Positions 16,091-34,136 of a DNA stretch of 64,000 bases are shown here, in pieces. Position 1 is the stretch's first letter; each line of letters opens with the position of its first letter. The DNA lies in assembly GCA_002399785.1 (NCBI GenBank), contig DHEH01000004.1, positions 19,107-83,106 of the forward strand. Direction: 5' to 3'. The stretch is from Bacillales bacterium UBA4855 (lineage in GTDB: Bacteria > Bacillota_I > Bacilli_A > RFN20 > CAG-826). The translations under genes were made by a program, and so were the position numbers. Under the pieces are notes generated by a model. The model was not told the origin of the DNA, made no database searches, and saw nothing but the letters and a program-made list of their open reading frames with translations.

Positions 16091-16102
16091 AAAAATAATC
16101 AA

Positions 16103-19086: not shown

Positions 19087-19088
19087 TT

Positions 19089-19463
19089 ATGAAAGAATTA
19101 ACTTGTATAGTTTGCCCAAATAGTTGTTCTTTGAAAATTGAAAAAGTTAACGATGTATGGGTTGTAACCGAAAATAAATGTAAAAGAGGAGAGAAGTTTG
19201 CTATAAACGAGATGACGTGTCCGATGCGAACAATTTCTTCAACAGTTCGCACCACTTTCCCTGATGCACCAGTTGTTCCTGTAAGAGTTTCGGCAGAAAT
19301 TCCTAAAGATAAAATATTCGATGTTATGGAAGAAATTAATAAAGTAATTCTTGATAAACGAGTTAAAAGAGGATACAAAGTAATTAGTAGTTGTTTAGGA
19401 TTGAATGTGGACGTAATTGTCACAAGTAACATCCTAATTGAAAAAGGAGCGATTCATGAATAA
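19089..19463 (+). CDS. DUF1667-domain protein (third component commonly linked to the two flavoproteins)
   Basis: 124 aa. The N-terminal 'LTCIVCPNSCSL....CKRG' Cys cluster and the position after the two oxidoreductases match the DUF1667 pattern. Confidence 0.65.
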   Translation: MKELTCIVCPNSCSLKIEKVNDVWVVTENKCKRGEKFAINEMTCPMRTISSTVRTTFPDAPVVPVRVSAEIPKDKIFDVMEEINKVILDKRVKRGYKVISSCLGLNVDVIVTSNILIEKGAIHE

Positions 19464-20997
19464 TACCGAACCATTAGTATTCTCATTTGACTTTGGAACA
19501 CAAAGCGTTCGTGCTATGTTAGTTGATAAATGTGGCAAAATAGTTGCTTTGGTTAGAGAAAAATATCTTCCATCATACTACTCAAAAAAGATTGGTTACG
19601 CTGAACAATCATTTGATACCTATTATAAACACGCTTGCCTTGCTTCAAATAAATTAAAGGAGCAAAACAAAGAATTGTTTGAAAATATAATTTGTGTCAC
19701 CATTACTACAATTCGCGATACCTTCACTTGTACCGACGAAAAAGGTAATCCAATTAGAGATTTTATTCTTTGGTTAGATCAAAGAAGAGCTGAAGAACAA
19801 GAAAAGATGCCCTTATTTAAACGATTAATATTTAAAGCAGTTGGTATGGAATATGCTATAGAAAGACAAAGAGAAATATGTCGACCAGCATGGATTCGAC
19901 AAAACGAACCCGATTTATGGTCTAAAACTAAAAAATTTTGTAATATTAGCGCCATCTTAAATGCAAGATTAACTGGAAATTTTGTCGATTGTGACGCTTC
20001 TTGCATCGGTCGTGTTCCGTTTAATTATAAAAAACGTAACTGGATGAAAAGTAATGAACTTACTTATGAATTATTCGGTCTTGAACCTGACAAATTTATA
20101 AAAATTGTTAAACCAACTTCAAAAATTGGTGAAATTACAAGAAAAGCATCTCTTGAAACCGGTTTAAAAGAAGGATTACCAGTTATTGCTAGCGGTTCTG
20201 ATAAAGGATGCGAAACCATCGAATCTGGCGTTATGAATAATTATTCAGCAGCTCTTTCAATGGGCACTAGCGCCACAATTCAATTTGCTACTAAAAAATA
20301 TGTTGAACCAACAGCCTTCTTACCAGCTTATCCTTCTCCAAACCCAGATTTCTATAATCCTGAGTTACAAGTTATGCGCGCTGGTTGGATGTTCTATTGG
20401 TTTATTGAAAACTTCGGGTACGAAGATAAATTGATAGCTGCAAAAGAAGGTGTTTCTCCAGAACACATTCTCAATCGTCAACTCGATAAAGTACCACTTG
20501 GTTCTGGAGGGTTAATATTGCTCCCTTATTGGAATGCTCCACTAAAACAACCTGAAGCCAGAGGTTCAATTCTAGGTTTTATGCCAGATCACAATAAATA
20601 TTATATATATCGTGCAATTATGGAAGGTGTTGTCTTTACTCTCTATCAAGGATTTAAAACATTAGAGAAAAATTCAAAACATCACACTAAATTTCTTGTA
20701 ATCTCTGGAGGAAGTTCAGTCAGCGAAACAATTTGTCAAATTGTTGCTGATATCTTTAATCTTCCAGTCAAAAGATCAAAAGAAAGTGAAGCATGTGGAT
20801 TAGGTTCAGCAATGTGTGGATTCGTTGGAATGGGAATATATAAATCATTCAATGAAGCTGCTAGCAACATGGTAGGTTATGCTAAAACTTACGAACCAAT
20901 TAAAGAAAATCACCAAGAATACGAAAAAATATATCAAACTAAATTTAAAAAGATATATCCAAGCATTCGTGGGGTTTATAAAAATTACATAAAATAA
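19456..20997 (+). CDS. FGGY-family carbohydrate/polyol kinase
   Basis: I set the start at MNNTEP (AAAGGAG SD 7 nt upstream). 'FSFDFGTQSVRAMLVD' is the phosphate-1 motif and 'ISGGSSVSETICQIVADIFNLPV' is the C-terminal FGGY motif. Confidence 0.85.
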   Translation: MNNTEPLVFSFDFGTQSVRAMLVDKCGKIVALVREKYLPSYYSKKIGYAEQSFDTYYKHACLASNKLKEQNKELFENIICVTITTIRDTFTCTDEKGNPIRDFILWLDQRRAEEQEKMPLFKRLIFKAVGMEYAIERQREICRPAWIRQNEPDLWSKTKKFCNISAILNARLTGNFVDCDASCIGRVPFNYKKRNWMKSNELTYELFGLEPDKFIKIVKPTSKIGEITRKASLETGLKEGLPVIASGSDKGCETIESGVMNNYSAALSMGTSATIQFATKKYVEPTAFLPAYPSPNPDFYNPELQVMRAGWMFYWFIENFGYEDKLIAAKEGVSPEHILNRQLDKVPLGSGGLILLPYWNAPLKQPEARGSILGFMPDHNKYYIYRAIMEGVVFTLYQGFKTLEKNSKHHTKFLVISGGSSVSETICQIVADIFNLPVKRSKESEACGLGSAMCGFVGMGIYKSFNEAASNMVGYAKTYEPIKENHQEYEKIYQTKFKKIYPSIRGVYKNYIK

Positions 20998-21010
20998 AGG
21001 AAACAAAATT

Positions 21011-22744
21011 ATGACAAAAAAGAAAGAAGAATTTTTACCAAAATGGGTGACTGAAGAAGCTTCTCCAAGATCTTATAGATCAATCGGAAGATGGGGAGAT
21101 CCAAAATTCGTCAAATTCCCAAAACCTGCTTTATACAAATTTATGAAGCAAACATTTAATATGACTGACGAGGATTTCAAGCACTATCATAACGATATTG
21201 GTTTAGAAGATGTCGATATTAAAATTCCAACAAAAATGAGCGAAAAAGATATTAAAGCTTTTGCACAAATTGTTGGTGAAAAAAATATTTCACTCGATGT
21301 TTACGATAGATTATTCGTAATGTACGGAAAAACATTATATGACGTCATGAGAATTAGAGAGCATAAATTCGATAGTGTTCCTGATTTAGTTGTTTATCCA
21401 GAAGATACCGATCAAATCGAAAAAATAGTTGCTTATTGTACTGAAAATAAGATCCCACTTTATGTTTATGGTGGAGGATCAAGTGTCACTCGTGGTGTTG
21501 AACCAATTAAAGGCGGTGTCTCTCTTGATATGAGACGTAATTTCAATAAAGTCTTATCATTTAATGATATCGATCAAACCATCACTGTTCAAGCTGGTAT
21601 GAGTGGACCTGATTTAGAAAAACATCTTAATAATGCTATGCAAGAATTTAATGCATCTAGAGCTTATACTTGCGGTCACTTCCCACAATCATTTGAATAT
21701 TCTTCAGTTGGTGGTTGGGTTGTTACTCGTGGAGCTGGACAAAATAGTACATATTACGGTGTCATTGCTGATATCGTTTTATCACAAAAATACGCTACAC
21801 CAATCGGAACTATTAAAACTTCCCACTATCCTCGTGAATCAACCGGACCAAATCTTAATCAAATTATGATGGGATCAGAAGGAACATTTGGTGTTTTAAC
21901 TGAAGTAACTTTAAAAGTCTTTAGATATATGCCAAAAAATCGTAAAAGATATTCTTATATGTTTAAAAACTGGCAAGATGCTATGAATGCCGCTCGTGAA
22001 ATCATGCAAAGCGAAGATGGCTATCCATCAGCTTTTAGAGTATCTGACCCAGAAGAAACCGATATGATGCTTAAATTATATAATGTTGATGATTCACCAT
22101 TACGTTATTTCTTAGCTGGTTTTGAACCAATGAAAAGAAGTTTAATGTTAGGTTTTACTGAAGGAGACAAAGAATATTCCAAAAATGTTCGTAAAACAAT
22201 CGCTCGTGTCGCTAGAAAATATCATGCTCGTTCTTTAACTGGGCTTGTTTGCAAAAGCTGGGAACACGGAAGATTTAACGATCCATATTTAAGAGATACC
22301 CTTCTTGATTTTGGCATTGCTACCGATACTTTAGAGTGTACTGTCAATTGGTCAAATATGGCTCAAGTTCACGAAGAAGTTCGTAAAATTTGTCACGCTA
22401 GACCAAATACAGTCGTTACCACTCACTTGTCACATGCTTATCCACAAGGTGCTAACTTATATTTCATTTTTATCACTCATAGTGAAACTAGTGAAGATTT
22501 TAAAAAGTACCACACCACTATTCTTGATGCTATTCAAAAGAGTGGAGCTGCTATTAGTCACCACCATGGTGTCGGAAAAATGTTTGCTCCATGGCTTGAA
22601 GGCTACATGGGCAGAAAAGAATTCGGTATCTACCATGTTTTAAAAGATTATTTCGACAAAGATTATTTAATGAATCCAGGCGGAACAATTGGTTTAGATC
22701 TTGAAGAAAAAGACAAAAAATTCTTAAGAGACGACATTAAATAA
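21011..22744 (+). CDS. FAD-linked oxidase, alkyl-dihydroxyacetonephosphate-synthase (AGPS)-like
   Basis: PCMH-type FAD domain ('VVYPEDTDQIEKIV...YVYGGGSSV'). 'VGGWVVTRGAGQNSTYYG', 'STGPNLNQIMMGSEGTFGVLTEVTLKV', 'HLSHAYPQGANLYFIF' and an 'HHHGVGK' loop all resemble AGPS blocks. Confidence 0.75.
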   Translation: MTKKKEEFLPKWVTEEASPRSYRSIGRWGDPKFVKFPKPALYKFMKQTFNMTDEDFKHYHNDIGLEDVDIKIPTKMSEKDIKAFAQIVGEKNISLDVYDRLFVMYGKTLYDVMRIREHKFDSVPDLVVYPEDTDQIEKIVAYCTENKIPLYVYGGGSSVTRGVEPIKGGVSLDMRRNFNKVLSFNDIDQTITVQAGMSGPDLEKHLNNAMQEFNASRAYTCGHFPQSFEYSSVGGWVVTRGAGQNSTYYGVIADIVLSQKYATPIGTIKTSHYPRESTGPNLNQIMMGSEGTFGVLTEVTLKVFRYMPKNRKRYSYMFKNWQDAMNAAREIMQSEDGYPSAFRVSDPEETDMMLKLYNVDDSPLRYFLAGFEPMKRSLMLGFTEGDKEYSKNVRKTIARVARKYHARSLTGLVCKSWEHGRFNDPYLRDTLLDFGIATDTLECTVNWSNMAQVHEEVRKICHARPNTVVTTHLSHAYPQGANLYFIFITHSETSEDFKKYHTTILDAIQKSGAAISHHHGVGKMFAPWLEGYMGRKEFGIYHVLKDYFDKDYLMNPGGTIGLDLEEKDKKFLRDDIK

Positions 22745-22845: not shown

Positions 22846-22867
22846 TAACGCTTTTTCCAAAGCGTTA
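22846..22867 (-). terminator. Rho-independent terminator after the enoate-reductase gene
   Basis: Stem TAACGCTT/AAGCGTTA (8 bp, 6-nt loop) with an A-run on the plus strand (a T-run on the minus strand), 36 nt past the stop. Confidence 0.5.
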
Positions 22868-22902: not shown

Positions 22903-24954
22903 TTATAATTTCATTGCAATATTCCAGGCATTCCAAACAGCAGACATGATATTGCCAACTTTATTGCAATCACCGATGAGATGAACCTTCTTATCTTTAC
23001 TAAGTGGAGCTTCACTATAGCCAACGCACATAATGACATCGCTACATTTTAAAGTGACATCTTTGCCATCTTTAGTAGTAATAATTGCGCTACCATCTTT
23101 AATTTCTTTAATTTTTGATTCAAGATAAACAGGAGTTTTATTGTAAGCAAAATAATCACGTAAATAACTTGAATTTGCTAAACACACTCCGTGAGCAGCA
23201 ATTAAATCATCTTTCATCTCAACAATAACTGGTTTTTTACCTTTTAAGCAAAGGTCATAAGCAATTTCACATCCAGTTAGAGATCCGCCAATAATAACGA
23301 CGTTATCGCCAACTTCTTTAGTGTGATTAAGGAAATCAACAGCTGACATCGCTAATTCGTAACCAGGAACTCTAATGACTCTTGCCTTGGCTCCGGTAGC
23401 AACGATGATTTCATCTTCTTTTAAGGATGATAAATCTTTAATTTCTGAATTAAATTTAACAGGAATATTCAAATCTTTAACTTGTTTACGGTACCAAGCA
23501 ATTAAGGCTTGGTCTTTCTCTTTAAATGAAAAGGAAGAAGCTGGAATAAAGACTCCACCTAAAACTGAACTCTTCTCATAAATTGTTGGTTTATGACCAC
23601 GTAAAGCTAAAACTCGAGCAGCTTCCATACCAGCAATTCCACCACCAATAATAGCGACAGTTTTGCTCTTTTTGGCTTTTTCAATATGATATTTCTTACT
23701 GTTCATCGAGGAAGGATTGACGGCACAGTGGCACATTCCTCTAGTTTCAGAAAGTGTTTGATCATTTGGTACGCCTTTATAATGGCAAAGATTAAAGCAT
23801 CCACTATGGCAACAAATACAAGGTCTAATGTCATCTTCGCTTTCATTAATCAATTTATGGACCCAATCAGGATCAGCTAAGAATTGACGACCAACACCCA
23901 TAGCATCTATTTTATTTTCTTTAATTTTTTCTGCACCAAAATCTGGTTCATTTCTTCCACCAACTACAACTGGAATTGATACGACTTTTTTAACTTCTTC
24001 AGCTTCCATATAGTTGCAGTTAAGAGGCATGTACATTGGTGGATGATTCCAATACCAAGCATCGTAAGTTCCGTTATCGCAGTTAAGCATATCGTAACCA
24101 GCATCTTGAAGATATTTTGCGGCTTTGAGTCCTTCTTCTAAATCTCTTCCGGCTTCAACATATTTTTCGCCTGGAAGGGCTCCTTCACGGTATCCTTTAG
24201 TTTTACTAACTACTGAATAACGAAGAGAAACTGGATAATCTTTACCACAAGCAGCTTTAATTGCATGAACAATTTCAACTGGAAATCTATAACGATTTTC
24301 AAATGATCCGCCATATTCATCTGTACGATGATTTGTATATTTCATAGTAAATTGATCGATTAAATAGCCTTCATGAACAGCATGAACTTCAATTCCGTCA
24401 ACACCAGCTTCTTTACAAAGTTTGGCAGTTTTTGCGAAAGCCTCGACTAATTTGTTAATTCTTTTAATTGTAATTTCTTTACTAGGAATTTTATCGCTCC
24501 AACGATTTGGCTCAGCACTAGGAGCTGCAGTTAAATCATCGACATTAAGAATTGGTTTAGCTAAATAACGAAGAAGAGGATTGCTTCCAATGGCTTCAAT
24601 TGGTTGACTAACAGCAAAAGCACGACCAAAACCAGCAGTAAGTTGAATAAATAACTTAGCACCAGTTTTATGAATTTCATCCATAAATTTCTTAAGTTGT
24701 TTAAATTTACCTTTTCCTTGATAAAGCCATTTTGGGCCTACCATATCATGAACTGGAGCAATTCCTGGAAGAATCAATCCACAATCGTTTTGAGCAATTT
24801 CTAACAAAAGCTTTGCTGCTTCTTTATCAAAATGATTTGGCTCACTAAATCCAAAAATACATGTTCCGCCCATAGGTAACATAACAATACGATTTTTAAT
24901 TTCTACATTTCCTATTTTCCAAGGAGTGAACAATGGTTCATACTTTTTTTCCAT
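22903..24954 (-). CDS. FMN / [4Fe-4S] / FAD enoate-reductase-family oxidoreductase (2,4-dienoyl-CoA reductase / BaiCD / FldZ architecture)
   Basis: 683 aa with an OYE-like N-terminal TIM barrel, the Cys cluster 'CICCHSGCFNLCHYKG....CHCAVNP', then 'VAIIGGGIAGMEAA' and 'VVIIGGSLTGCEIA' dinucleotide folds. Confidence 0.85.
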   Translation of the reverse strand: MEKKYEPLFTPWKIGNVEIKNRIVMLPMGGTCIFGFSEPNHFDKEAAKLLLEIAQNDCGLILPGIAPVHDMVGPKWLYQGKGKFKQLKKFMDEIHKTGAKLFIQLTAGFGRAFAVSQPIEAIGSNPLLRYLAKPILNVDDLTAAPSAEPNRWSDKIPSKEITIKRINKLVEAFAKTAKLCKEAGVDGIEVHAVHEGYLIDQFTMKYTNHRTDEYGGSFENRYRFPVEIVHAIKAACGKDYPVSLRYSVVSKTKGYREGALPGEKYVEAGRDLEEGLKAAKYLQDAGYDMLNCDNGTYDAWYWNHPPMYMPLNCNYMEAEEVKKVVSIPVVVGGRNEPDFGAEKIKENKIDAMGVGRQFLADPDWVHKLINESEDDIRPCICCHSGCFNLCHYKGVPNDQTLSETRGMCHCAVNPSSMNSKKYHIEKAKKSKTVAIIGGGIAGMEAARVLALRGHKPTIYEKSSVLGGVFIPASSFSFKEKDQALIAWYRKQVKDLNIPVKFNSEIKDLSSLKEDEIIVATGAKARVIRVPGYELAMSAVDFLNHTKEVGDNVVIIGGSLTGCEIAYDLCLKGKKPVIVEMKDDLIAAHGVCLANSSYLRDYFAYNKTPVYLESKIKEIKDGSAIITTKDGKDVTLKCSDVIMCVGYSEAPLSKDKKVHLIGDCNKVGNIMSAVWNAWNIAMKL

Positions 24955-24957
24955 ATT

Positions 24958-25701
24958 TTATTTTTCCTTTCGTGCGCTATTTGCCTTGCCTACCATCTTT
25001 TTATGAAATTCTTTCATTTCATCGACTTCGGCACATACCGGTTTCCAAGCACATTTTTTACAATTCATTACAGAATCTTTTAACATATGATTATAAGCTT
25101 CACTTCTTTCGTGAGACTTATTAGCAATAAATTCAAGTTCATTATAAGATACATTAACGGAAGTAACAAATAATATTTTTACTCCTAATACATGAGGATC
25201 TTTATGAAATTCATGAATGAATTCATTACCAATTTGAGCAAAATTAAGCTTATTTTTAATTGCATCTTTACTAACTCGAACTTGTTCTCGTAATGTAAGC
25301 GCACTTGCTCTAATCATAAAACCTTTGATAGCAATATTATATTTACTGATTTCAATATTTTTTAATATTTCATAGAAACTATCAGGTCCGTTTTTTTCAA
25401 CATCATCGACAAGTAAGAAAACAATTCGTGCATAAGAGCAATCAGTTTTAATTTCATTTAAATCTGGTCCAATTAAGATAACTTCATCCTTATCTATAAT
25501 AGTTTTATCTTGGGTAACAGCTAAGAAAGATAAACTATCGTAACCACCAGCACCTAATTCATAAGCTGTTTCTTTTTGTAAAATGAGTTCATTATGTTCC
25601 CCTAAAGGAGCAAGATTTTTCTCATCGTAAACAAATGACTTTTTAGAAAAAGGTTTAAGATAAGTTAAGGTTTCGTTAATTAAATCATCAAATGCTTTCA
25701 C
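24958..25701 (-). CDS. Stand-alone protein resembling the middle domain of acetyl-CoA synthase (AcsB/CdhC), with a short C-terminal Cys motif
   Basis: GTG start with an AAAGAGGA SD. 'ETAYELG....VILIGPDLNEI', 'VRVSKDAIKN' and the C-terminal 'CKKCAWKPVC' parallel, from my memory of Moorella AcsB, 'PAFELV...IEVIGPDIDQI', 'LRVSKDAV' and 'CVLCQSFAPNHVC'. Confidence 0.45.
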   Translation of the reverse strand: MKAFDDLINETLTYLKPFSKKSFVYDEKNLAPLGEHNELILQKETAYELGAGGYDSLSFLAVTQDKTIIDKDEVILIGPDLNEIKTDCSYARIVFLLVDDVEKNGPDSFYEILKNIEISKYNIAIKGFMIRASALTLREQVRVSKDAIKNKLNFAQIGNEFIHEFHKDPHVLGVKILFVTSVNVSYNELEFIANKSHERSEAYNHMLKDSVMNCKKCAWKPVCAEVDEMKEFHKKMVGKANSARKEK

Positions 25702-25868
25702 TAAATATCCTCTTTTTGATGTTTTTTATCATGATGCTTTATTAACATATTATATACTTTTTCAACTAACTTCATATCGCCGTTGGTTATATAAATGATG
25801 AAAATAACAACAAAGAATAAAACAATTAAACTACCCAATACTATTAAAAGTATCCAATACCATGCCAT
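25701..25868 (-). CDS. Unlisted 55-aa single-TM peptide gene inside the operon
   Basis: My own translation gives MAWYWILLIVLGSLIVLFFVVIFIIYITNGDMKLVEKVYNMLIKHHDKKHQKEDI*. The ATG lies 2 nt after the activase stop, and its TAG overlaps the GTG of the next gene (TAGTG). It is below the ORF-track length cutoff. Confidence 0.4.
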   Translation of the reverse strand: MAWYWILLIVLGSLIVLFFVVIFIIYITNGDMKLVEKVYNMLIKHHDKKHQKEDI

Positions 25869-25870
25869 AA

Positions 25871-26662
25871 TTATTCCATTCCTTTTTGTCTAGCAAACTC
25901 AGCGGCACCTAAAGCTCCCATAAGTTGTGGGTCAGTAGATAATTCGATAACTTTAATATGCAAAACGTTTTCAATGGCTTGTTTTAAGCCTTTATTTTTA
26001 GCACATCCACCAGTTAAAGCAATTTGATCAGTTGCGCCGGCTTTTTTAGCCATAATAAAGCAACGTTTTGCAACTGCTTGTTCGATACCAGCAGCAATTT
26101 CTTCACGTGGTTTTCCTTCACCAACTAAAGTTATAACTTCTGATTCAGCAAAAACTGTACATTGAGCAGTAATTGCAATGACATTTTTAGCTGTTAAAGA
26201 AAGATCAGAGAATTGGTCGAGAGTTAACTTAAAGGCTCTAGCCATAGTTTCAAAGAAACGTCCAGTTCCAGCGGCACATTTATCGTTCATAGCAAACTCT
26301 TTAACAGTTCCATCTTCATCAATAGCAATACCTTTAACGTCTTGTCCACCAATATCAATGATGGCTTTTACTTCAGGATTTGTAACGTGAACGCCCATAG
26401 CGTGACAAGAAATTTCTGAAATGTTTTCTTGAGCTTGAGGAACTTTATTTCTTCCGTAGCCTGTACCGATAAGATAAGTGAAATCATTGAGTGATTTCAT
26501 TTCAGGAATTTGTTTAATTACTTCTTCTAAGCCTTCTTTAGCACTAATTTCGCTATTGATGTCGCTAGGAATTGTTGCATGAGCAATCATCTTTCCTTCT
26601 TCGTCTAAAATTACACATTTTGTATAGGTTGAACCTACATCACATCCACCAAAATATTTCAT
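25871..26662 (-). CDS. ATP-dependent activase of the 2-hydroxyacyl-CoA dehydratase / benzoyl-CoA reductase family (HgdC/BcrAD_BadFG type)
   Basis: 'GCDVGSTYTKCVILD', 'IIDIGGQDVKGI', 'MNDKCAAGTGRFFE', 'AQCTVFAESEV' and 'LTGGCAKNKGL' are the ASKHA ATPase motifs plus the two cluster-bridging Cys. Confidence 0.9.
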   Translation of the reverse strand: MKYFGGCDVGSTYTKCVILDEEGKMIAHATIPSDINSEISAKEGLEEVIKQIPEMKSLNDFTYLIGTGYGRNKVPQAQENISEISCHAMGVHVTNPEVKAIIDIGGQDVKGIAIDEDGTVKEFAMNDKCAAGTGRFFETMARAFKLTLDQFSDLSLTAKNVIAITAQCTVFAESEVITLVGEGKPREEIAAGIEQAVAKRCFIMAKKAGATDQIALTGGCAKNKGLKQAIENVLHIKVIELSTDPQLMGALGAAEFARQKGME

Positions 26663-26677
26663 ATTTTTACTCCTTTA

Positions 26678-28249
26678 TTACCAAGTCAAAGCATCTTCAT
26701 AATCCAATAAACTTGGATCGAGAGGCTCAGCATGGAAGATATTTTGCATATATTGATTAAACGATGCTCTCATCGCTTTTCTTGAAACGGTACGTGGATC
26801 CATTAAGTCATGTGAAACCCAGACTAAATGAATGCCTCTTTTTCTTGCTTGTTCTTCGTATAGACCATGAAGTCCAGCAACGTTTTTACAAGAAACGTGA
26901 TCAAACATAATGACAATATCAGCTTTAAATTTCTCAGCCATTTTCCAACATTCATCAAGCGAATTGACGTATCCACCATTGGTGTGAGATCTCATCATCA
27001 TTCTTTCATAACTCTTAGCCATATCAATCATGGCTTGTTCTTTATCACCAATATGGAAGAAATGGTGTGAAAGCATACATTCCATATCAACAACACACTT
27101 AACGCCCCAACAATGTTGAGTCCAATAAGTGAAATTTGTATAGTAGTGAGCAGGACATGCCCAAACTATTGATCTATACTTTGGTTTATTAGCATCATTC
27201 TTTTTGTCTTGTAAATAGCCTTTTTGCATCATTTTATCGACTTTTATATCAGTTTTAATGAAGAATGGGTCTAAACAAGCAACTTCTTGATATTCATACT
27301 CACGTTGTAAAGCAAGAGCTGCTCCACAAACTTGTGGGTATGGAGTGCAATTTACATCCCATTTATTAATCATCATTTTGGTTGAGGTGTTATACATCTC
27401 GGCACCTTTCCAAAAAGCATCCCAATCCCATTTTGCATGCATCTCTTTTTCAATAAAAGCAATACATTTTTTAAGATTCTTAACCGCAAAATCTTGAACC
27501 TGTTCTTCATTAAATCTTTGTGGAGGAATAATTTGGAATGTTTCAACTCCATATTTTTCCATATATCGACCTAAGAAAGATGTTTGACCAATCGAACCAT
27601 CACAAGGCATAGAGCTAGTAACATAAGCTCTACCTACAATTGGATAATCATCAGTAACGGCACAACCGACTTCGGCTTCAGGTAATGGACAAACATCGCT
27701 TGCCATTCCAAAATGTTCAATAGCATCAATATAAAATACATTAGCATTTTGATCAACTTCACCTGGCTCACCAATTGTAAACATAGCAATATCGATCCAC
27801 TTAACTTTTGGGAAACCTGCCATAATGATTGATGGAGTCATTTCATCAAACATTAAGGTATTAGCTCTTAATTTGGCTGCGTGTTTACTTTTTGGTCTTA
27901 AATGTAAATCACGAACAATTATATCTCTAATCTTAACGACCGAATAATACATCAAAGAATAGAATTGTTCGTGTGTGTAACGAAGTTCTTTTCCTCTTAA
28001 TCCAAGTGTATGACGATCGACCATGTTAGCGGCTGTAAGGTAAGATGCCATCCAACGATATCTTAATAATGCTTTAACCATTAAAATTGGATGGACCGCA
28101 AGTTTTACAACCATCAACCCATATAATTTCAACCAGCGGAAATAATCGTACATGGTGTCACCAAATCCCTTCCGCTCACGATAAGTGAAAGCTCTTTTGT
28201 CACCTCTATAAAATCTTCCGAGGCCTTTTTTGTTTTTATTTGGTTCCAT
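26678..28249 (-). CDS. 2-hydroxyacyl-CoA-dehydratase / benzoyl-CoA-reductase-family subunit (large, divergent N-terminus)
   Basis: 523 aa of the HGD-D-type family, with conserved Cys contexts ('ASDVCPLPEAEVGC', 'SSMPCDGS') and a C-terminal 'IVIMFDHVSCKNVAG'. It shares a TAATG overlap with the upstream subunit. Confidence 0.7.
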   Translation of the reverse strand: MEPNKNKKGLGRFYRGDKRAFTYRERKGFGDTMYDYFRWLKLYGLMVVKLAVHPILMVKALLRYRWMASYLTAANMVDRHTLGLRGKELRYTHEQFYSLMYYSVVKIRDIIVRDLHLRPKSKHAAKLRANTLMFDEMTPSIIMAGFPKVKWIDIAMFTIGEPGEVDQNANVFYIDAIEHFGMASDVCPLPEAEVGCAVTDDYPIVGRAYVTSSMPCDGSIGQTSFLGRYMEKYGVETFQIIPPQRFNEEQVQDFAVKNLKKCIAFIEKEMHAKWDWDAFWKGAEMYNTSTKMMINKWDVNCTPYPQVCGAALALQREYEYQEVACLDPFFIKTDIKVDKMMQKGYLQDKKNDANKPKYRSIVWACPAHYYTNFTYWTQHCWGVKCVVDMECMLSHHFFHIGDKEQAMIDMAKSYERMMMRSHTNGGYVNSLDECWKMAEKFKADIVIMFDHVSCKNVAGLHGLYEEQARKRGIHLVWVSHDLMDPRTVSRKAMRASFNQYMQNIFHAEPLDPSLLDYEDALTW

Positions 28250-29466
28250 TATTTTGCCTCCTCATTTTTCTTAGCTCTTTGAGCTTTAATTTTCTTAATT
28301 TCAACATTTTCGACAAAAGCTTGAACTCTTGTACGAAGTTGTCCGCTATTTCCAGATCGATATGGTCTATCGATTGAAAGAGTAGGAATATGGTACTCAT
28401 CACGTAAAACGTGACTTGCTAATGTTCTTTCATATGACCAATAAGTACAGAATTTCATTTGTTCATATATTATTCCGTCTGCATTATATTCTTTTACAAG
28501 ATCGGCAGCATGTTGGAAACGATATTTAACTTTATGAGGAATACATTGTCTTGGGCATTCAGTTGTTTGAACGTAATTTCTAACAATTTGAGTTAAGATG
28601 TCTTCATCCTTATTTAATATAATCTCTTGTCTTCCAGGAACACTTCCATAGCAATAACGATCACAAACTACTCTAATTCCGTTTTCTTCAAATAATTTGA
28701 TTAAATCTGGATCATCAATTTCAGAACCAACAACCACCGCTTTAATTCTAAAATCTTTCTTCTTGTCAGGAACTCTAGTTTTAAGTTCTTCACAAGTTTC
28801 TTTAAGTTTTTCAATCATTAAATCTTTTGGACAAACATAACTTGCCAAAACAAAAATAGCAAATTCATAACCAGTAATGGTTGGATTATCAAGGTGACGA
28901 TATTGATCCATTTCTTTAAATAATCGGCAAATTTCATTATGTCTATTTACTGCATCAATAAGAGATGCATCGGAAATATCAATGTCGTATTTTTCATGTA
29001 ATTGAGTCAACACTTTTCTTGACACTTGCTCTTTTAAATGTGCAACTGCATCTTCATCATCAGTACAAGGAACATCAAGATTGGTATAGAAAAAATTCTT
29101 TTTTTCAGGAGAATTTACTTGAAGTAATTCCATATTTTCCATCGCTCTATTCATCGCTTCACATGCGTCAACACCAGCAATGGCGTCAAGGAAATGATAT
29201 CCACCTTCAAGACCTCTTTCTAATAGAGCTCGTGAATATTCACAGCTTCCACTCGACATATAGTAACTTGCCATTTCCATTGAACCAGTTCGTGGAGCTC
29301 TTAAACGAATCGAAAAACAACGGCCAAGATTTAAAAGTACCTCAGGCATATGGTAACAAGTGTAACCAAGAGCTAATCTTCCCTCTTTTTGCGCTTCTCT
29401 AACAAGTTCGTTATTAGCATCATCTAATAATTTTTCGAAATAAAATAAATGTTTTAAGTCCTTCAC
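28249..29466 (-). CDS. 2-hydroxyacyl-CoA-dehydratase / benzoyl-CoA-reductase-family subunit
   Basis: 405 aa. It uses a GTG start with a strong AAGGAGGA SD and a GTGA overlap with the cooC-like stop. 'LALGYTCYHMPEVL', 'SGSCEYSRALLE', 'DACEAM' and 'QMKFCTYWSYE' are typical of HgdB/BcrB-like subunits. Confidence 0.8.
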   Translation of the reverse strand: MKDLKHLFYFEKLLDDANNELVREAQKEGRLALGYTCYHMPEVLLNLGRCFSIRLRAPRTGSMEMASYYMSSGSCEYSRALLERGLEGGYHFLDAIAGVDACEAMNRAMENMELLQVNSPEKKNFFYTNLDVPCTDDEDAVAHLKEQVSRKVLTQLHEKYDIDISDASLIDAVNRHNEICRLFKEMDQYRHLDNPTITGYEFAIFVLASYVCPKDLMIEKLKETCEELKTRVPDKKKDFRIKAVVVGSEIDDPDLIKLFEENGIRVVCDRYCYGSVPGRQEIILNKDEDILTQIVRNYVQTTECPRQCIPHKVKYRFQHAADLVKEYNADGIIYEQMKFCTYWSYERTLASHVLRDEYHIPTLSIDRPYRSGNSGQLRTRVQAFVENVEIKKIKAQRAKKNEEAK

Positions 29467-30242
29467 TTGCTAATTCCTCCTTTTATATCTAAGTTTTTTA
29501 AAGCTTCGTCAACACCTTTAATTAATAAAGAATCATCATCTAAATCAAGGACGCTTTTGCCCATTACATCGGTTAAAGCTAGTTCTTTATCATCAGGAAT
29601 TTTTGCAAGAATTGGCAATTTACCTAGATTTAAATATTCATCAATTCGGGAATCATTATAACGATTAACAATGACACCAATTTTTGAATACATTGTTAAT
29701 TCATCAGCAACTTGCTTAATTACTTTAATAACATTAGTTCCTTTTCGACTTGGATCGGTAACTAATATTAAATGAGTAACTTTTTCCATAACACGACGAT
29801 TAATTTGTTCAATTCCAGCTTCTCCATCAATTACCACAAAATCAAATTCTTCGCTAACTGCCGAAATAACTTGTTTTAAATAGGAATTGATACTGCAATA
29901 ACATCCAGCAGCTTCAGGACGACCGACAGCTAAAAAAGCAAAACCTTGAGTCTCAATCATGGCATTCAAAAGTTGAAAACGAGCTTCTCCTAAAAGCTCA
30001 ATTGCTTTCTTTTTTGTTTTGTCTTCTTCCCCTGCTTCCGTAATTGATTTACGAATATCATCTATAGTTTGGCCAACATTAGTAATACCTAATGCAGTAG
30101 CTAAACCAATTGCAGGATCCGCATCTATTGCTAAGATCCTTTTGTTAGGAAACATCTTAACAAGTTCTCTAATAATCGCTGCGGAAATAGAGGTTTTACC
30201 AACCCCACCTTTTCCTGCTAAGGCTATAACTGTACTTTTCAT
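29463..30242 (-). CDS. CooC/AcsF-type MinD-family P-loop ATPase (Ni-insertion chaperone family)
   Basis: Deviant Walker A 'AGKGGVGKTS', 'ILAIDADP', the CXC metal motif 'AAGCYCSINSYL' (Cys114/Cys116) and 'VVIDGEAGIEQINRR'. It is co-linear with my recollection of Carboxydothermus CooC1 ('GGSQCYCRENSFL', 'MDMGAGIEHLTRG'). Confidence 0.75.
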   Translation of the reverse strand: MKSTVIALAGKGGVGKTSISAAIIRELVKMFPNKRILAIDADPAIGLATALGITNVGQTIDDIRKSITEAGEEDKTKKKAIELLGEARFQLLNAMIETQGFAFLAVGRPEAAGCYCSINSYLKQVISAVSEEFDFVVIDGEAGIEQINRRVMEKVTHLILVTDPSRKGTNVIKVIKQVADELTMYSKIGVIVNRYNDSRIDEYLNLGKLPILAKIPDDKELALTDVMGKSVLDLDDDSLLIKGVDEALKNLDIKGGISK

Positions 30243-30248
30243 AATATA

Positions 30249-30277
30249 ATTATGCTAAAAAAATAAATCGTATTCAA
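30249..30277 (-). promoter_or_regulatory. Candidate promoter of the cooC-like operon, positioned for a leaderless transcript
   Basis: On the minus strand: TTGAAT (30277-30272), a 17-nt spacer, CATAAT (30254-30249), then 6 nt to the ATG at 30242. There is no SD before the ATG. Confidence 0.4.
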
Positions 30278-30349
30278 TATATTTTATTCATCAAAAATGT
30301 CGCTTTGGTGGTCATTTTTTCATAAAAAGAGCCTAAAATATCGATGCTG

Positions 30350-30365
30350 TCAGTCATTTGACCGA
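30350..30365. promoter_or_regulatory. Imperfect copy (14/16) of the 16103 palindrome, upstream of the cooC-like operon
   Basis: TCAGTCATTTGACCGA versus TCGGTCAATTGACCGA. It is flanked by GTCAGT and CAGTATT direct repeats. Confidence 0.35.
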
Positions 30366-30523
30366 TAGTCAGTAAAAATTATCAGTATTCAGTATTTTTA
30401 ACTTTTTTTAAAATTATTATTTTACAAAAAATAAACACATTTCAATTCAATAAAATTTACTTATTAAGTAATATATTCTTTAATTTCGTATTTATAAATC
30501 TTCACTAGAATTTAACAACTAAA

Positions 30524-30547
30524 AAAGGCATTTTGGTAAATGCCTTT
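30524..30547 (-). terminator. Rho-independent terminator after PFOR (bidirectional shape)
   Basis: Stem AAAGGCATTT/AAATGCCTTT with a 4-nt loop, flanked by an A-run and a T-run, 26 nt past the PFOR stop. Confidence 0.65.
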
Positions 30548-30572
30548 TTATAGTTAATTGAATTAGTAAATT

Positions 30573-33500
30573 CTATAAACCAAATTTCTTAATTCTGTCC
30601 CATCTTTCCTTGGCGCACTTCTCGTTCTTTGCGAATAATTCTTCGTAATGAGCAGGATTGACCTTTGGAAGTTGAGCATATCTTGTTTCCTTCATAATGA
30701 AATCTCTGATCTTTGTAAAATCAGGTTCTTTGCAATCAATTGAAAGTCCTGGTTTGCCTTCAGCAACAAGACGTGGATCGTATCTAAATGTAGTAAAGTA
30801 GCCACATTCAACAGCGTTCTTTTCAGTTTCAATTGAGTTGACCATACCACCTTTAATACCTTGGTTAATACATGGAGAATAACAGATAATTAAGGATGGA
30901 CCATTGAATGATTCAGCTTCTTTGAAAGCCTTAATTGCAGCTGCTGGGTTAGCACCTAAAGCAACTTGAGCAACGTATACTGAACCATAAGCCATAGCCA
31001 TTAAAGCAAGATTCTTCTTGGCTTGTCTCTTTCCACTTGCAGTGAATTGAGCGATACTTCCGGTTTGACTTGATTTAGAAGATTGACCACCAGTATTGGA
31101 GTAAACTTCAGTATCAAGACACATAACATTGATATCATCTTCACTAGCTAAGACGTGATCAAGTCCGCCGTAACCAATATCGTAAGCCCAGCCATCTCCA
31201 CCAATAATCCAAACTGATTTATCAAGTAAATCGTTCTTGTAATCGAGAACTTTCTTGATTTCTCTATTTTTGCTGGCTTCAACACCTTTAAGTAATTCTG
31301 GAATAATCTTTCTAGCTTCATCTTTGTTTTTGATGTTTGCAAGATAATTTCTAATTAAATCTTTAAGTCCTGGTTCAAGTCTCTTAGTTAAGCATTCATT
31401 TAAGATAGAGGAAATTGCAGCTAATTTATAATCAGTAGCAAGTCTCATACCATAACCATATTCAGCGTTATCTTCGAATAAGGAGTTAGCCCATGCGATA
31501 CCATTACCTTTTTTGTCGTTAACAAATGGAGTTTCTGGGGTTGATCCACAATAAATTGAAGAACAACCAGTAGCATTAGCAACTAGCATATCTTTTCCGA
31601 ATAATTGTGATAATAATCTGTAGTAAGGGGTTTCTCCACAGCCAGCGCAAGCACCACTAATTTCCATGTAAGGCATTAAGAATCCAACACCTTTTACAGT
31701 TGTAAGTGGGAATTTATCAGTCTTATATTCAGTATGTTTGAATAAATATTCAGCATACTTTTCTTTATCAAATTGTGATTTAGCTTCAACAAGTTCAAGA
31801 GCAGTCTTACCGCTACCAGTTCTTAAAGCATTCTTGTTAGCCATACATTCTTTGACACAAAGTCCACAACCAACACAGTTCTTTGGTGAGATAGAAATAA
31901 TGAATTTAAGTCCATTAACAGTTGGTCCCATAGCTGGTTTTACCATATCGGCAAGTCCGGCTGGTCCCTTCTTAATTTCTTCATCAGTTAATAAGAATGG
32001 TCTAATTGTAGCGTGTGGACAAACAAATGAACATTGGTTACATTGAATACAGTTTTCTTGATGCCAAACTGGAACTCTATCAGCAACACTACGTTGTTCT
32101 TGATAAGTGACATCTTCTCTCATTGATCCATCAAGAAGTCCATCTTTTGTGAAGGCACTTGTTGGTAAATCATATCCATCAAGAGAATTGATAACATCGA
32201 CATAATTATCGATATATTCATCACCAGTTGAATTTCTAACTCTTAATGGAGGAAGATTAATCCACTCTGGATCAACTTTAACTTCTCTAAGACCTTCAGT
32301 TCCTTTATCGATAGCGACATAGTTAAGTTTAACAACTTCGTCACCTTTCTTGGAATATGTCTTTAAAGCAAGTTTTTTCATCCACTTATTGGCCTCTTCA
32401 TATGGCATAATTTGTGGATTTAAAGAGAAGAATGCTGATTGAAGAATAGTATTTGTATGTCTACCCATACCGATTTCAAGAGCAATCTTGTTAGCATCTA
32501 TAACATAGAATTTTATGTGTTTTTTAGCTAATTGATATTTGACTCTATTAGGAAGAACTTTGGCTAACATCTCATCACTCATATCTGTGTTGAGTAAGAA
32601 AGTTCCGTTCTCTTTAAGATTCTTTAACATATCGAATCTCATAACATAAGTATCAAGTGAACAACTTAAGAAATCAGCGTGATCAACATAATATGTAGAA
32701 TGAATTGGTTCTTTACCGAATCTAAGGTGAGATCTTGTGACACCACCTGATTTTTTGGAATCGTAAGCAAAATAAGCTTGTGCATATTGATGAGTTGCAT
32801 CACCAATAATCTTAATTGATGACTTATTAGCACCGACAGTTCCATCGCTTCCTAATCCGTAGAATAAGCAGCTAGTGTAACTATGTTTAATTTCATAATT
32901 TTCATCAACAGGAATACTTAAATGTGTGACATCATCGTTGATTCCGACTGTGAAATCGTGATGTTCGTTACCACTAAGCATCCAATCAAAGACGGATTTA
33001 ATATGTTTTGGTTGAGTATCTTTACTGCTTAAACCATATCTTCCACCAATGACATTAATCTTCTTTTTGCCCATAAAGTTAAGAGCACTGCAAACATCTT
33101 CATATAATCCTTCACCAACCGAACCAGATTCTTTAGTTCTATCTAAAACAACTAATTCTTTGCAAGTTCTTGGTAAAGCTTTAACTAAATATTCAGCACT
33201 AAACGGTCTATAAAGGTGGACTCTAATCATACCAACCTTTTCACCTTTAGCCATTAAATCAGTAACAACTTCATAAGCGGTTTCATTGACTGAACCCATA
33301 GCAACAATAACTTTAGTAGCATCTTTAGCACCATAATAAACAAATGGAGCATAATCTCTACCAGTCATTTTACTTACTTTCTTTAAATATTTGACAGCAA
33401 CAGGAAGAACATTGTTGAAGTGTTCATTTTGTGCTTCTCTACCTTGGAAGTAAATATCATCATTTTCAGCACCACCACGAGTAACAGCGTGTCCGTGTGG

Positions 33501-34136
33501 GTTTAAAGCGTTCTTTTTAAATTCAGCAACTTTATCCCATGGTACTAACTTCTTCCACTCTTCATCAGCAATGAATTCAACGTTTTGAATTTCGTGAGAA
33601 GTTCTAAAACCATCGAAATAGTGACAAACAGGGTACATTGCATCTAAAGCAATTAAGTGAGCAACTGATGATAAATCAGCAACTTCTTGAACAGAATCGC
33701 TGCATAACATCGCAATTCCGGTTTGTCTAATAGCAGCAACGTCTTGATGATCACCGAAAATTGATAATGATCTTGTTGCTAATGATCTAGCACTGACGTG
33801 CATGACGGCAGGTAATAATTCTCCACACCATTTATAGATGTTTGGAATCATAAGTAATAAACCTTGTGAAGCAGTATAAGTTGTTGCAAAAGCGCCACCT
33901 TGCATAGCTCCATGAAGTGCGCCACTTGCGCCTCCTTCAGATTGCATTTCGCAGACCTTTACAGGGTTACCAAAGAAATTTTTCTTTCCTTGAGCTGCAT
34001 AAATGTCGACGTAATTCGCCATAGGTGAGGATGGAGTAATAGGGAAAATAGCAGCGACTTCGGTGAAGTTATAACTCATCAAAGCAGCAGCAGTATTACC
34101 ATCAACACTAAGCATAGTCTTTTTGATTTCAGCCAT
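30573..34136 (-). CDS. nifJ: Pyruvate:ferredoxin (flavodoxin) oxidoreductase, single-polypeptide type
   Basis: About 1187 aa. I set the start at MAEIKKT (AAAGGAG SD). It has two ferredoxin-type motifs ('CIQCNQCSFVCPH', 'CVGCGLCVKEC') and the TPP motif 'GGDGWAYDIGYGGLDH'. Confidence 0.95.
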   Translation of the reverse strand: MAEIKKTMLSVDGNTAAALMSYNFTEVAAIFPITPSSPMANYVDIYAAQGKKNFFGNPVKVCEMQSEGGASGALHGAMQGGAFATTYTASQGLLLMIPNIYKWCGELLPAVMHVSARSLATRSLSIFGDHQDVAAIRQTGIAMLCSDSVQEVADLSSVAHLIALDAMYPVCHYFDGFRTSHEIQNVEFIADEEWKKLVPWDKVAEFKKNALNPHGHAVTRGGAENDDIYFQGREAQNEHFNNVLPVAVKYLKKVSKMTGRDYAPFVYYGAKDATKVIVAMGSVNETAYEVVTDLMAKGEKVGMIRVHLYRPFSAEYLVKALPRTCKELVVLDRTKESGSVGEGLYEDVCSALNFMGKKKINVIGGRYGLSSKDTQPKHIKSVFDWMLSGNEHHDFTVGINDDVTHLSIPVDENYEIKHSYTSCLFYGLGSDGTVGANKSSIKIIGDATHQYAQAYFAYDSKKSGGVTRSHLRFGKEPIHSTYYVDHADFLSCSLDTYVMRFDMLKNLKENGTFLLNTDMSDEMLAKVLPNRVKYQLAKKHIKFYVIDANKIALEIGMGRHTNTILQSAFFSLNPQIMPYEEANKWMKKLALKTYSKKGDEVVKLNYVAIDKGTEGLREVKVDPEWINLPPLRVRNSTGDEYIDNYVDVINSLDGYDLPTSAFTKDGLLDGSMREDVTYQEQRSVADRVPVWHQENCIQCNQCSFVCPHATIRPFLLTDEEIKKGPAGLADMVKPAMGPTVNGLKFIISISPKNCVGCGLCVKECMANKNALRTGSGKTALELVEAKSQFDKEKYAEYLFKHTEYKTDKFPLTTVKGVGFLMPYMEISGACAGCGETPYYRLLSQLFGKDMLVANATGCSSIYCGSTPETPFVNDKKGNGIAWANSLFEDNAEYGYGMRLATDYKLAAISSILNECLTKRLEPGLKDLIRNYLANIKNKDEARKIIPELLKGVEASKNREIKKVLDYKNDLLDKSVWIIGGDGWAYDIGYGGLDHVLASEDDINVMCLDTEVYSNTGGQSSKSSQTGSIAQFTASGKRQAKKNLALMAMAYGSVYVAQVALGANPAAAIKAFKEAESFNGPSLIICYSPCINQGIKGGMVNSIETEKNAVECGYFTTFRYDPRLVAEGKPGLSIDCKEPDFTKIRDFIMKETRYAQLPKVNPAHYEELFAKNEKCAKERWDRIKKFGL

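Follow-up and report, generated by a model that had tools for sequence, protein, structure and literature searches.

A run of seven genes on the minus strand of a Bacillales genome raises the question of why a reductase engine of the benzoyl-CoA reductase (BCR) type should be encoded together with proteins resembling parts of the carbon monoxide dehydrogenase (CODH) and acetyl-CoA synthase (ACS) machinery. The run lies in a 64,000-nucleotide stretch of contig DHEH01000004.1 of Bacillales bacterium UBA4855 (assembly GCA_002399785.1), referred to below as the window (~30% G+C). It comprises genes for a CooC-like ATPase, the beta and alpha subunits of an HGD-D family enzyme, an activase, a 55-aa transmembrane (TM) peptide, an ACS-like protein and a flavoenzyme. 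An initial annotation of the window had recognized these components and had suggested a new ATP-driven reductase or dehydratase whose cofactor needs CooC-type maturation. From the analysis described here we propose, with a probability of about one half, that the operon encodes an ATP-driven low-potential Fe-S reductase of the class I BCR/double-cubane lineage that works with three accessory proteins (the CooC-like ATPase, the TM peptide and the ACS-like protein).

The seven minus-strand open reading frames (ORFs), located between 22903 and 30242 and encoding proteins of 259, 405, 523, 263, 55, 247 and 683 aa, are tightly packed. From their coordinates, and in gene order, the first two junctions are overlaps (GTGA, 4 nt; TAATG, 1 nt), the next two are gaps of 15 and 2 nt, and the last two are a TAGTG overlap of 1 nt and a gap of 3 nt. 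Because terminator-like hairpins occur at 30549-30522 and 22867-22846, the seven genes are bounded by two terminators and form one operon, in agreement with the gene order, the junctions and the single unit given in the initial annotation.

The identity of the engine follows foremost from the beta subunit, which scores 294 bits against HGD-D and has BzdN as its best solved relative (8s02_B, 8e-26), followed by HadC and DCCP. The [8Fe-9S] cluster of BzdN is held by Cys36/73/100/263/293/327 (PMC11971306), and beta residues C37/75/102/272/304/340 align one-to-one with these ligands, without variation among 41 orthologues. BzdN kept six of the six cysteine positions in that search and DCCP clearly five, its C304 column being ambiguous. 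The best NCBIfam model for beta was 'double_cubane' (NF040772), although at 133.5 bits versus a cut-off of 350 (alpha scoring 22.4), and the equivalog models also stayed below their cut-offs (BzdN 94.8 versus 453.8; BcrC 46.5 versus 421; BzdQ 170.6 versus 380; HadC 92.7 versus 700).

The alpha subunit gave a weak HGD-D score (109 bits) and, as a single sequence, no match in the PDB. A 30-sequence alpha profile nevertheless reached DCCP (5e-12), BzdO and MbdO, and an AlphaFold2 (AF2) model of alpha (predicted local distance difference test (pLDDT) 82.7, predicted template modelling score (pTM) 0.85) returned BzdO as the best Foldseek match (1.9e-12), then DCCP, MbdO and HadB. Its only invariant cysteines, C187/C216/C454, align with the BzdO cluster ligands C95/C128/C380, the third of them through a sub-threshold HMMER segment. 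An invariant D217-G218-S219 follows C216, and Glu65 and Trp46 of BzdO fall outside the aligned region. The N-terminal ~170 aa of alpha constitute a helical and strongly conserved extension that has no counterpart in the solved relatives. The activase, finally, scores 198 bits with BcrAD_BadFG and 224.5 bits with TIGR00241 (cut-off 125.4), which bears out its assignment to the HgdC type. Its C129 and C168 are conserved, and we take them to be candidates for the two cluster-bridging cysteines of HgdC. Being encoded by a single gene, the activase is presumably a homodimer.

The distribution of this gene set was examined by a survey of gene neighbourhoods across genomes, which had been put forward with the initial annotation as a check. 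In total 83 loci (numbered L001 etc.) were fetched, the seven window proteins were mapped on them by tblastn, and the other ORFs were clustered after masking of known genes; the 42 loci with at least 4.8 kb of DNA upstream of the ACS-like gene were considered informative. The order CooC-like, beta, alpha, activase, ACS-like was intact in 34 of these 42, five carried only the CooC-like and ACS-like genes, directly adjacent, and three had no cassette gene other than the ACS-like one. In 65 of 82 loci the start of the ACS-like gene coincides with the end of a 51-56-aa ORF that encodes one TM helix and a conserved N-x-D-x-K motif. Moreover, six further annotated loci from distant homologues contain the same six genes, including records labelled Treponemataceae, Anaeroplasmataceae and Erysipelotrichaceae. 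The recurrence of one gene order in distant genomes indicates that the association is functional and not due to chance. The conserved unit, referred to here as the cassette, is composed of six genes: CooC-like, beta, alpha, activase, TM peptide and ACS-like. The seven-gene composition initially described therefore holds for the operon in the window, but not for the conserved unit, since a gene of the old yellow enzyme (OYE) type, such as the flavoenzyme, is found at only 18 of the 42 informative loci, or 22 of all 83, where it lies downstream or divergently upstream and on either strand.

Homologues of the ACS-like protein numbered 145 in a word-indexed search, and an exhaustive search of 1.84 billion representatives yielded 841 clusters at 50% identity (577 at E<=1e-10), the best 150 of which were nearly all stand-alone proteins of ~230-250 aa or shorter fragments. 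A scan with one genome per species found an ACS-like relative in at least 576 genomes. The carriers are mostly gut and rumen Clostridia, among them Oscillospiraceae and Lachnospiraceae, but such a relative also turned up in records labelled Erysipelotrichaceae, Anaeroplasmataceae, Bacteroidaceae and Treponemataceae. Five loci (L023, L049, L057, L071 and L076) have a second, diverged alpha/beta pair beside the cassette (30-37% and 49-52% identity) and yet a single activase, CooC-like gene and ACS-like gene each, suggesting that alpha and beta are substrate-specific while the other components are shared. In three related loci (L007, L009 and L010) the cassette is preceded by a Staphylococcus-type FadB and a thiolase and followed by a butyryl-CoA:acetate CoA-transferase-like gene. 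Beyond OYE-type reductases and TetR regulators, nothing recurred in the flanks of ~80 loci, which mostly hold housekeeping genes. As a separate observation, the contigs of about 30 loci (e.g. L017, L021 and L024-L037) begin within some hundred bases of the ACS-like gene on its upstream side; assemblies seem to break in or just after the activase gene, which is very conserved (75-91% identity across families).

The seventh gene of the window operon encodes a protein with Oxidored_FMN and Pyr_redox_2 domains, in which C379/C382/C386/C410 form an invariant CxxCxxxC...C motif, consistent with the FMN/Fe-S/FAD reductase family named in the initial annotation. Its best PDB matches, naphthoyl-CoA reductase (NCR; 6qkg, 2e-54) and FadH (1ps9, 2e-46), both act on acyl-CoAs. 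As all specific equivalog models remained below cut-off (BaiCD 355 versus 825; the long form of BilR 366 versus 750), the protein can be placed in the family but not given a specific function. The OYE-type genes at cassettes fall into at least three subfamilies, with 85-87%, 53-59% and 26-29% identity to the window protein, and the OYE active-site histidines H191 and H194 are invariant in its relatives. Across loci the seventh gene can be absent; otherwise its place is occupied by an OYE-type reductase, a second alpha/beta pair or an isoprene-reductase-like enzyme accompanied by HypA. Specifically, in L001 (10773-14133, Pseudobutyrivibrio ruminis), L020 (6384-9415) and L087 (9868-13364) a 950-960-aa Fer4_20/Pyr_redox_2 oxidoreductase followed by HypA replaces the OYE-type gene. 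By its domain composition and HypA neighbour only, this oxidoreductase resembles the putative isoprene reductase family, which was reported to co-occur with HypA and HypB (PMC10134865). The putative isoprene reductase operon of Acetobacterium described in the same paper was considered as an instance of the present system and rejected, as it carries neither HGD-D nor activase genes.

The ACS-like protein scores 23.5 bits with Pfam CdhC, just under the gathering score of 24, and falls far short of two other ACS models (25 versus a cut-off of 372, and 22 versus 800). However, a profile of 29 members matched only ACS chains, covering residues 334-510 of the Moorella enzyme, and the AF2 model (pLDDT 86.8) gave 21 Foldseek matches at E<=1e-3, all of them ACS chains (best 1.7e-10), with nothing other than ACS chains below E=0.3. 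The protein is thus a genuine CdhC relative, as its initial description as AcsB-middle-domain-like had implied. The family has an invariant C-terminal motif, C214-x2-C217-x5-C223-x9-H233, of which C214 and C217 align with C506 and C509 of ACS. We take the latter to be two of the four cubane ligands of the A-cluster, with C509 also bridging to the proximal nickel, and presume the complete ligand set to be C506, C509, C518 and C528, at spacings of 8 and 9 after the CxxC. In the ACS-like family C223 and H233 follow at spacings of 5 and 9, so that the fourth ligand would be a histidine. Because the protein ends 14 residues after H233, the Cys-Gly-Cys nickel site is missing, and the N-terminal, CODH-binding domain of ACS is entirely missing as well. 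The position of the adenine-stacking tryptophan of ACS is occupied by an invariant arginine, and an RVSK segment is common to both families. The ACS domain that is retained is the CoA-binding one (PMC12289521; bioRxiv 10.1101/2024.08.05.606187).

The peptide encoded immediately before the ACS-like protein belongs to no family. It consists of one hydrophobic helix, in line with its initial description as a TM peptide, with the conserved N-x-D-x-K motif and a basic tail, and suggests that the assembly has a membrane location.

For the 259-aa ATPase, Pfam and NCBIfam returned only CbiA/AAA_31 of the MinD/ArsA P-loop superfamily. Its best solved relative is CooC1 (3kje, 4e-13), with C114-Y-C116 aligning with the metal-binding CYC of CooC1, so that its initial assignment as a CooC relative stands. 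The deviant Walker A motif GKGGVGKT (G10-T17) and the CxC are invariant in 42 orthologues. Neither a CODH nor a full ACS was found among the annotated loci or the scanned window ORFs (a scan that covered ~8.8-45 kb of the window), and among the latter there was likewise no match to an ACS core, a corrinoid protein or a hydrogenase, in line with the initial annotation. Six loci (L045, L047, L048, L068, L073 and L079) carry a CooC-like gene directly beside an ACS-like one but no gene for alpha, beta, the activase or the peptide, and this adjacency in the absence of the reductase genes favours a chaperone-client pair. In three of these pair-only loci a 530-aa [FeFe]-hydrogenase-like gene (Fe_hyd_lg_C) is divergently adjacent.

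A possible nickel link came from neighbours of the cassette in other genomes. CooT (PF10133, 32-61 bits versus a cut-off of 27) is encoded beside it in L084, L057 and L018, and CooT-like genes in L032 and L044 were seen by tblastn only. The three cassette-adjacent CooT proteins begin with MCLS, in which Cys2 corresponds to the nickel ligand of CooT. Each CooT gene lies beside a gene for a small protein of a family recorded as DUF8180 in L084, where the copy has a His-rich start (MAHHHE), and the pair (4950-5401 in L084, 561-940 in L057 and 10822-11211 in L018) appears to resemble a CooT/CooJ-like nickel-handling set. In addition, an Opp/Nik-type ABC transporter flanks the cassette in L011 (13147-14748), L072 (13326-14936) and L082 (1633-3649), and HypA is located near it in L001, L020 and L087. 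Together, these CooT, NikA-like and HypA neighbours support the idea that the CooC-like ATPase handles nickel, without indicating which protein receives it. For the cofactor in need of CooC-type maturation that was proposed initially, they provide support that is indirect and leaves it unproven.

In the reading we favour, a homodimeric ASKHA activase would use ATP hydrolysis to drive electrons into the 405-aa beta subunit, which would store them on its [8Fe-9S] double cubane. Their next station would be the [4Fe-4S] cluster of alpha, one of whose coordination sites would be free, and the substrate, most probably a CoA thioester, would be reduced there by a radical mechanism. The NCR/FadH-type flavoenzyme may perform NAD(P)H-dependent C=C reduction on the substrate or product, as in anaerobic naphthoyl-CoA reduction. 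The ACS-derived protein is predicted to hold a [4Fe-4S] cluster by three cysteines and one histidine beside its CoA-binding-type domain, and might serve as a shared adaptor for electron entry or for handling of the CoA moiety. The role of the CooC-type ATPase would be analogous to that of AcsF towards ACS, namely to load or repair a metal site (probably one for nickel) in either the reductase or the ACS-like protein, and the 55-aa peptide would tether the assembly to the membrane. The membrane location suggested by the peptide and the fatty-acid-type neighbours would also be compatible with a lipid substrate. The CoA-ester substrate is suggested by the enzyme family, the NCR and FadH relatives of the flavoenzyme, the FadB/thiolase/CoA-transferase context of L007, L009 and L010, and the CoA-binding ACS domain.

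Several observations weigh against this proposal. The catalytic His131 of BzdO is not conserved in the alpha family, which has Gly or Ser there, so that the chemistry need not be of the Birch type. No CoA-ligase or CoA-transferase is present in or next to the window operon, and most cassettes elsewhere stand alone among housekeeping genes; the CoA-ester assignment therefore rests on family analogy and the three related loci. The nickel link is similarly qualified: the best NCBIfam model for the transporter binding proteins of L011, L072 and L082 is nickel_nikA, but below its curated cut-off; HypA tracks with the 950-960-aa oxidoreductase, whose family is already known to co-occur with HypA; and a nickel-related neighbour was found in only ~11 of ~50 full loci and not in the window. 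With the Cys-Gly-Cys absent, the ACS-like protein contains no known nickel ligand set. Furthermore, in L009 the CooC-like protein is conserved at 71% identity versus 44% for the ACS-like protein, which fits a component of the catalytic cycle better than a maturation factor. The flavoenzyme, finally, could be an NAD(P)H electron-input module instead of acting on the substrate or product.

A somewhat unlikely alternative is that the ACS-like protein, matured by the CooC-type ATPase (with CooT where present), itself carries a new catalytic Ni-[4Fe-4S] centre, possibly binding or activating a CoA-ester or small molecule, while the BCR module mainly delivers very low-potential electrons. This would agree with the apparent retention of the A-cluster cubane motif, including C217 as the equivalent of the presumably nickel-bridging C509, next to a CoA-binding domain. 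The invariant CxC of the CooC-like protein, the Cys2-bearing CooT among the CooT neighbours of five loci, the NikA-like transporters of three, and the occurrence of the CooC-like/ACS-like pair without a reductase point the same way. However, the Cys-Gly-Cys site that binds both nickels in ACS is absent, most loci have no nickel gene nearby, and no other cassette protein is as poorly conserved as the ACS-like one. The service of two alpha/beta pairs by one ACS-like gene suggests, moreover, an accessory rather than a substrate-specific role.

Alternatively, the engine might be a classical 2-hydroxyacyl-CoA dehydratase, in which one catalytic electron is injected, an enoyl-CoA is formed and the enoate reductase follows, as in the reductive branch of Stickland-type fermentations. 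In databases both subunits are indeed called 2-hydroxyacyl-CoA dehydratase family proteins, significant similarity in structure and sequence links them to HadB and HadC, a single HgdC-type gene encodes the activase (unlike the heterodimeric BcrAD and BzdPQ), and an enoate-reductase-type gene often follows the cassette. Yet HadC has proline and alanine in place of beta C37 and C272, so that it lacks two of the six double-cubane ligands, all of which beta keeps, and this full cysteine set makes the enzyme BCR/DCCP-like rather than 2-hydroxyacyl-CoA-dehydratase-like. The score of the HadC equivalog, like those of the others, is far below threshold. No CoA-transferase, 2-hydroxyacid dehydrogenase or acyl-CoA dehydrogenase/electron-transferring flavoprotein (ETF) was found among the scanned window ORFs, as the initial annotation had noted in part, and these enzymes are absent from most loci too. 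The dehydratase would also leave the CooC-like, ACS-like and peptide genes unexplained. Given the predicted eight-iron ligand set of beta, we therefore consider a dehydratase unlikely, and less likely than a BzdNO/DCCP-type reductase. The BCR/dehydratase-type enzyme initially proposed is accordingly retained as an HGD-D family member and refined to the BCR/DCCP-like side.

A more specific and decidedly unlikely version of the reductase would be a nickel-dependent, membrane-tethered enzyme in which a CooC/CooT-loaded, ACS-derived Ni-Fe-S protein and the BCR-type double-cubane engine together hydrogenate bonds beyond the reach of flavoenzymes, such as C=C bonds that stand isolated in fatty acyl chains or in other lipids. 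Circumstantially, the FadH-like, FadB, thiolase and FadX-like neighbours fit this idea, as do the TM peptide, the isoprene-reductase-like seventh gene, and the presence of the cassette in Pseudobutyrivibrio and many rumen Oscillospiraceae. If true, the reductases still missing from biohydrogenation in the rumen and intestine would have a candidate in the cassette.

Within the favoured BCR/double-cubane reading the CooC-like protein would be a metal-loading ATPase. It appears very unlikely that it is instead a second electron-transferring ATPase of the MinD/NifH class, with a metal or cluster bound between two subunits by the CxC pairs, acting with the ACS-like Fe-S protein in a second ATP-coupled injection step or as a gate beside the ASKHA activase. 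It does belong to the ATPase class of the nitrogenase Fe protein and BchL (class table in PMC7317905), with weak NifH/BchX/BchL matches in family scans. It is also among the best-conserved members of the cassette (63-72% identity across Oscillospiraceae), its cysteines being invariant. However, its closest solved relative is CooC1, it has the adjacent CxC of nickel-binding CooC and not the spaced cysteines of the NifH type, and the CooT neighbours point to nickel handling. To our knowledge, there is also no precedent for a CxC binding a cubane. Still less credible is that the flavoenzyme, or the 950-960-aa Fer4_20/Pyr_redox_2 protein replacing it, is the NAD(P)H electron-input module feeding the ACS-like protein and the activase: although both seventh genes share an NAD(P)H/FAD Pyr_redox_2 domain and Fe-S clusters (their other domains differing) and no ferredoxin gene belongs to the cassette, neither of them is found near about half of the cassettes, the OYE domain and its active-site H191/H194 are retained, and the recruitment of at least three OYE subfamilies on either strand resembles pathway diversification.

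The features of the window that concern the operon are listed in Table 1.

Table 1. Positions of the cassette genes and associated features in the window
Feature	Position	Strand	Basis or remark
CooC-type (MinD/SIMIBI class) P-loop ATPase, 259 aa	29463-30242	-	HMM, PDB search, alignment
Beta subunit (BzdN-like), 405 aa, GTG start	28249-29466	-	predicted [8Fe-9S] double-cubane carrier
Alpha (catalytic) subunit, BzdO-like, 523 aa	26678-28249	-	profile, AF2/Foldseek
HgdC/DCCP-R-type ASKHA activase, 263 aa	25871-26662	-	TIGR00241
TM peptide, 55 aa	25701-25868	-	helix, N-x-D-x-K motif, basic helix
ACS-fragment protein, 247 aa, GTG start	24958-25701	-	A2-like (CoA-binding) domain and C214-x2-C217-x5-C223-x9-H233
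FMN/[4Fe-4S]/FAD flavoenzyme, 683 aa, variable seventh gene	22903-24954	-	Pfam, PDB search
Leader/promoter region, 330 nt, AT-rich	30243-30572	-	operator-like palindrome copy at 30348-30366
Terminator-like hairpin after the PFOR gene, upstream operon boundary	30522-30549	-	
Terminator-like hairpin ending the operon, bidirectional, common to the convergent operon	22846-22867	-	
Pyruvate:ferredoxin oxidoreductase (PFOR) gene upstream of the operon	30573-34157		TIGR02176, 1541 bits
TetR-family regulator gene, candidate repressor of the operon	15477-16040	-	putative operator 16102-16120

The leader contains promoter-like hexamers at 30445-30416 and 30277-30249. The CooC-like gene, which is the first of the operon, has no Shine-Dalgarno sequence, and a TTGAAT-17 nt-CATAAT pair ends 6-7 nt before its ATG. 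This proximity, together with the missing Shine-Dalgarno sequence, means that the operon may be transcribed from the proximal promoter-like site as a leaderless mRNA. A riboswitch (e.g. NiCo) in the 330-nt leader was considered and discarded, since no Rfam element reached its gathering threshold in the whole window and a permissive scan of the leader gave one chance-level match only.

Next to the TetR gene lies a 19-nt palindrome, ATCGGTCAATTGACCGACA (16102-16120), a copy of which with two mismatches is located in the cassette leader, where ~0.01 chance matches were expected; the near-copy of the TetR operator reported initially is thus present. Its recurrence makes co-regulation of the cassette and the convergent operon (16140-22744) plausible and suggests that both form one regulon, with the TetR protein as the candidate repressor. 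The TetR gene is divergent from this second operon, which converges on the cassette and encodes a GlpA-like dehydrogenase, a Pyr_redox_2 protein, DUF1667, an FGGY kinase and a GlcD-like oxidase. As a clue to the substrate the convergent operon was set aside, having only sub-threshold generic NCBIfam matches. Likewise, the window TetR was rejected as an orthologue of the cassette-adjacent TetRs elsewhere, the likeness being confined to the helix-turn-helix (38% over 53 residues). Upstream of the CooC-like gene the palindrome was seen in the window and in no other locus, and the motif and this TetR thus appear specific to the window's lineage.

The PFOR gene, which the initial annotation had placed directly upstream and regarded as a source of low-potential ferredoxin for the activase, is indeed there. 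However, a terminator separates it from the operon and PFOR adjoins the cassette in 0 of the 83 loci, so that its proximity offers no evidence for a dedicated electron source and is best regarded as coincidental. Further upstream, and unrelated to the cassette, are two successive genes for fused ABC-ATPase/FtsX-type permeases (629 and 703 aa; 34304-38297) and a PfkB-family kinase beside an Indigoidine_A-like protein (39678-41487), the latter two resembling a pseudouridine kinase/glycosidase pair.

Full-text literature yielded no description of this gene combination, in keeping with the initial statement that no system of such composition was known, and a 2020 review of double-cubane proteins mentions neither CooC nor gene clusters or operons (PMC7317905). 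Two candidates from the literature were dismissed: a selenoprotein 'SAO' locus that includes double-cubane proteins differs from this cassette in composition (bioRxiv 10.1101/2022.07.06.499078), and the putative CODH genes of 'Ca. Galacturonibacter' are unrelated hybrid-cluster proteins (PMC7000372). ATP-driven Fe-S reductases of the BCR, dehydratase and DCCP families carry out some of the hardest anaerobic reductions, with few substrates known, and relatives of the cassette occur in at least 576 species-level genomes, mostly from gut and rumen Clostridia. Its cultured carriers include Pseudobutyrivibrio ruminis, Clostridium algidicarnis DSM 15099 and Owariibacterium komagatae. Metabolic reconstructions are misled by the current labels of its parts ('carbon monoxide dehydrogenase', 'AAA family ATPase' and '2-hydroxyacyl-CoA dehydratase'), which imply, for instance, a CO metabolism that does not exist. 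With the cassette, the nickel-maturation/ACS world would for the first time be connected to BCR-type radical enzymes, and one system would for the first time encode both ATPase scaffolds of energised electron transfer, MinD-type and ASKHA-type. Knowing the substrate could bring to light a reductive activity that is widespread among gut microbes.

Among known systems, the Bzd-type class I BCRs (BzdNOPQ, MbdONPQ; 8s02, 9gai) share with the cassette the two paralogous HGD-D subunits, a six-Cys [8Fe-9S] beta, a three-Cys [4Fe-4S] alpha and an ASKHA-type ATPase as electron injector. They differ in that their ATPase is encoded by two genes (BzdP/BzdQ; BcrA/D) instead of one HgdC-type gene, that the cassette alpha lacks His131 and has the extra conserved ~170-aa N-terminus, and that the cassette scores far below the BzdN and BcrC cut-offs. 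The cassette lacks ferredoxin, dienoyl-CoA hydratase and ring-cleavage genes, and the Bzd systems in turn contain no counterpart to the CooC-like, ACS-like and peptide genes. DCCP and DCCP-R (6eno, 7yyl; YjiM/YjiL in E. coli) have the double-cubane cysteine pattern and a homodimeric HgdC-like ATPase in common with it. However, DCCP is a homodimer with a double cubane in each chain, whereas the cassette has two diverged subunits with the full cysteine set in one. The 2-hydroxyacyl-CoA dehydratases (HgdAB/HgdC, HadBC/HadI, FldBC/FldI, LcdAB) likewise combine an alpha/beta HGD-D heterodimer with a single-gene activase, and enoyl-CoA reduction is often the next step of their pathways. Their operons, unlike the present one, carry genes for a CoA-transferase, a 2-hydroxyacid dehydrogenase and an acyl-CoA dehydrogenase/ETF.

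A pairing of OYE-type and BCR-type reductases, as in the window operon, is also found in the anaerobic naphthoyl-CoA pathway, where the OYE-type FMN/FeS/FAD enzymes NCR and DHNCR accompany the ATP-dependent, BCR-like THNCR. That pathway, however, belongs to sulfate-reducing Deltaproteobacteria and acts on other substrates, and we know of no CooC-like, ACS-like or peptide genes in it. From the nickel side, the AcsF/CooC-ACS and CooC-CooT-CooJ-CODH systems resemble the cassette in pairing a CxC-bearing CooC-type ATPase with an ACS-derived protein that has a putative A-cluster-type cubane motif, and in the CooT (Cys2) found at some cassettes. The cassette differs from AcsF/CooC-ACS/CODH in lacking CODH, both the N-terminal and the C-terminal domain of ACS, the Cys-Gly-Cys, a corrinoid protein and a methyltransferase, and its partner is instead of the BCR type. 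PlsA/PlsR plasmalogen synthase and Ger offer a further parallel as BCR/dehydratase-family enzymes of anaerobes that act at the membrane, where the TM peptide suggests that the cassette operates too. By its description, however, PlsA is a large fusion with two activase domains that lacks a separate double-cubane subunit and is accompanied by neither CooC-like nor ACS-like genes. The engine of the cassette is thus that of a known enzyme family, and the accessory trio of CooC-like ATPase, TM peptide and ACS-like protein is unprecedented for that family.

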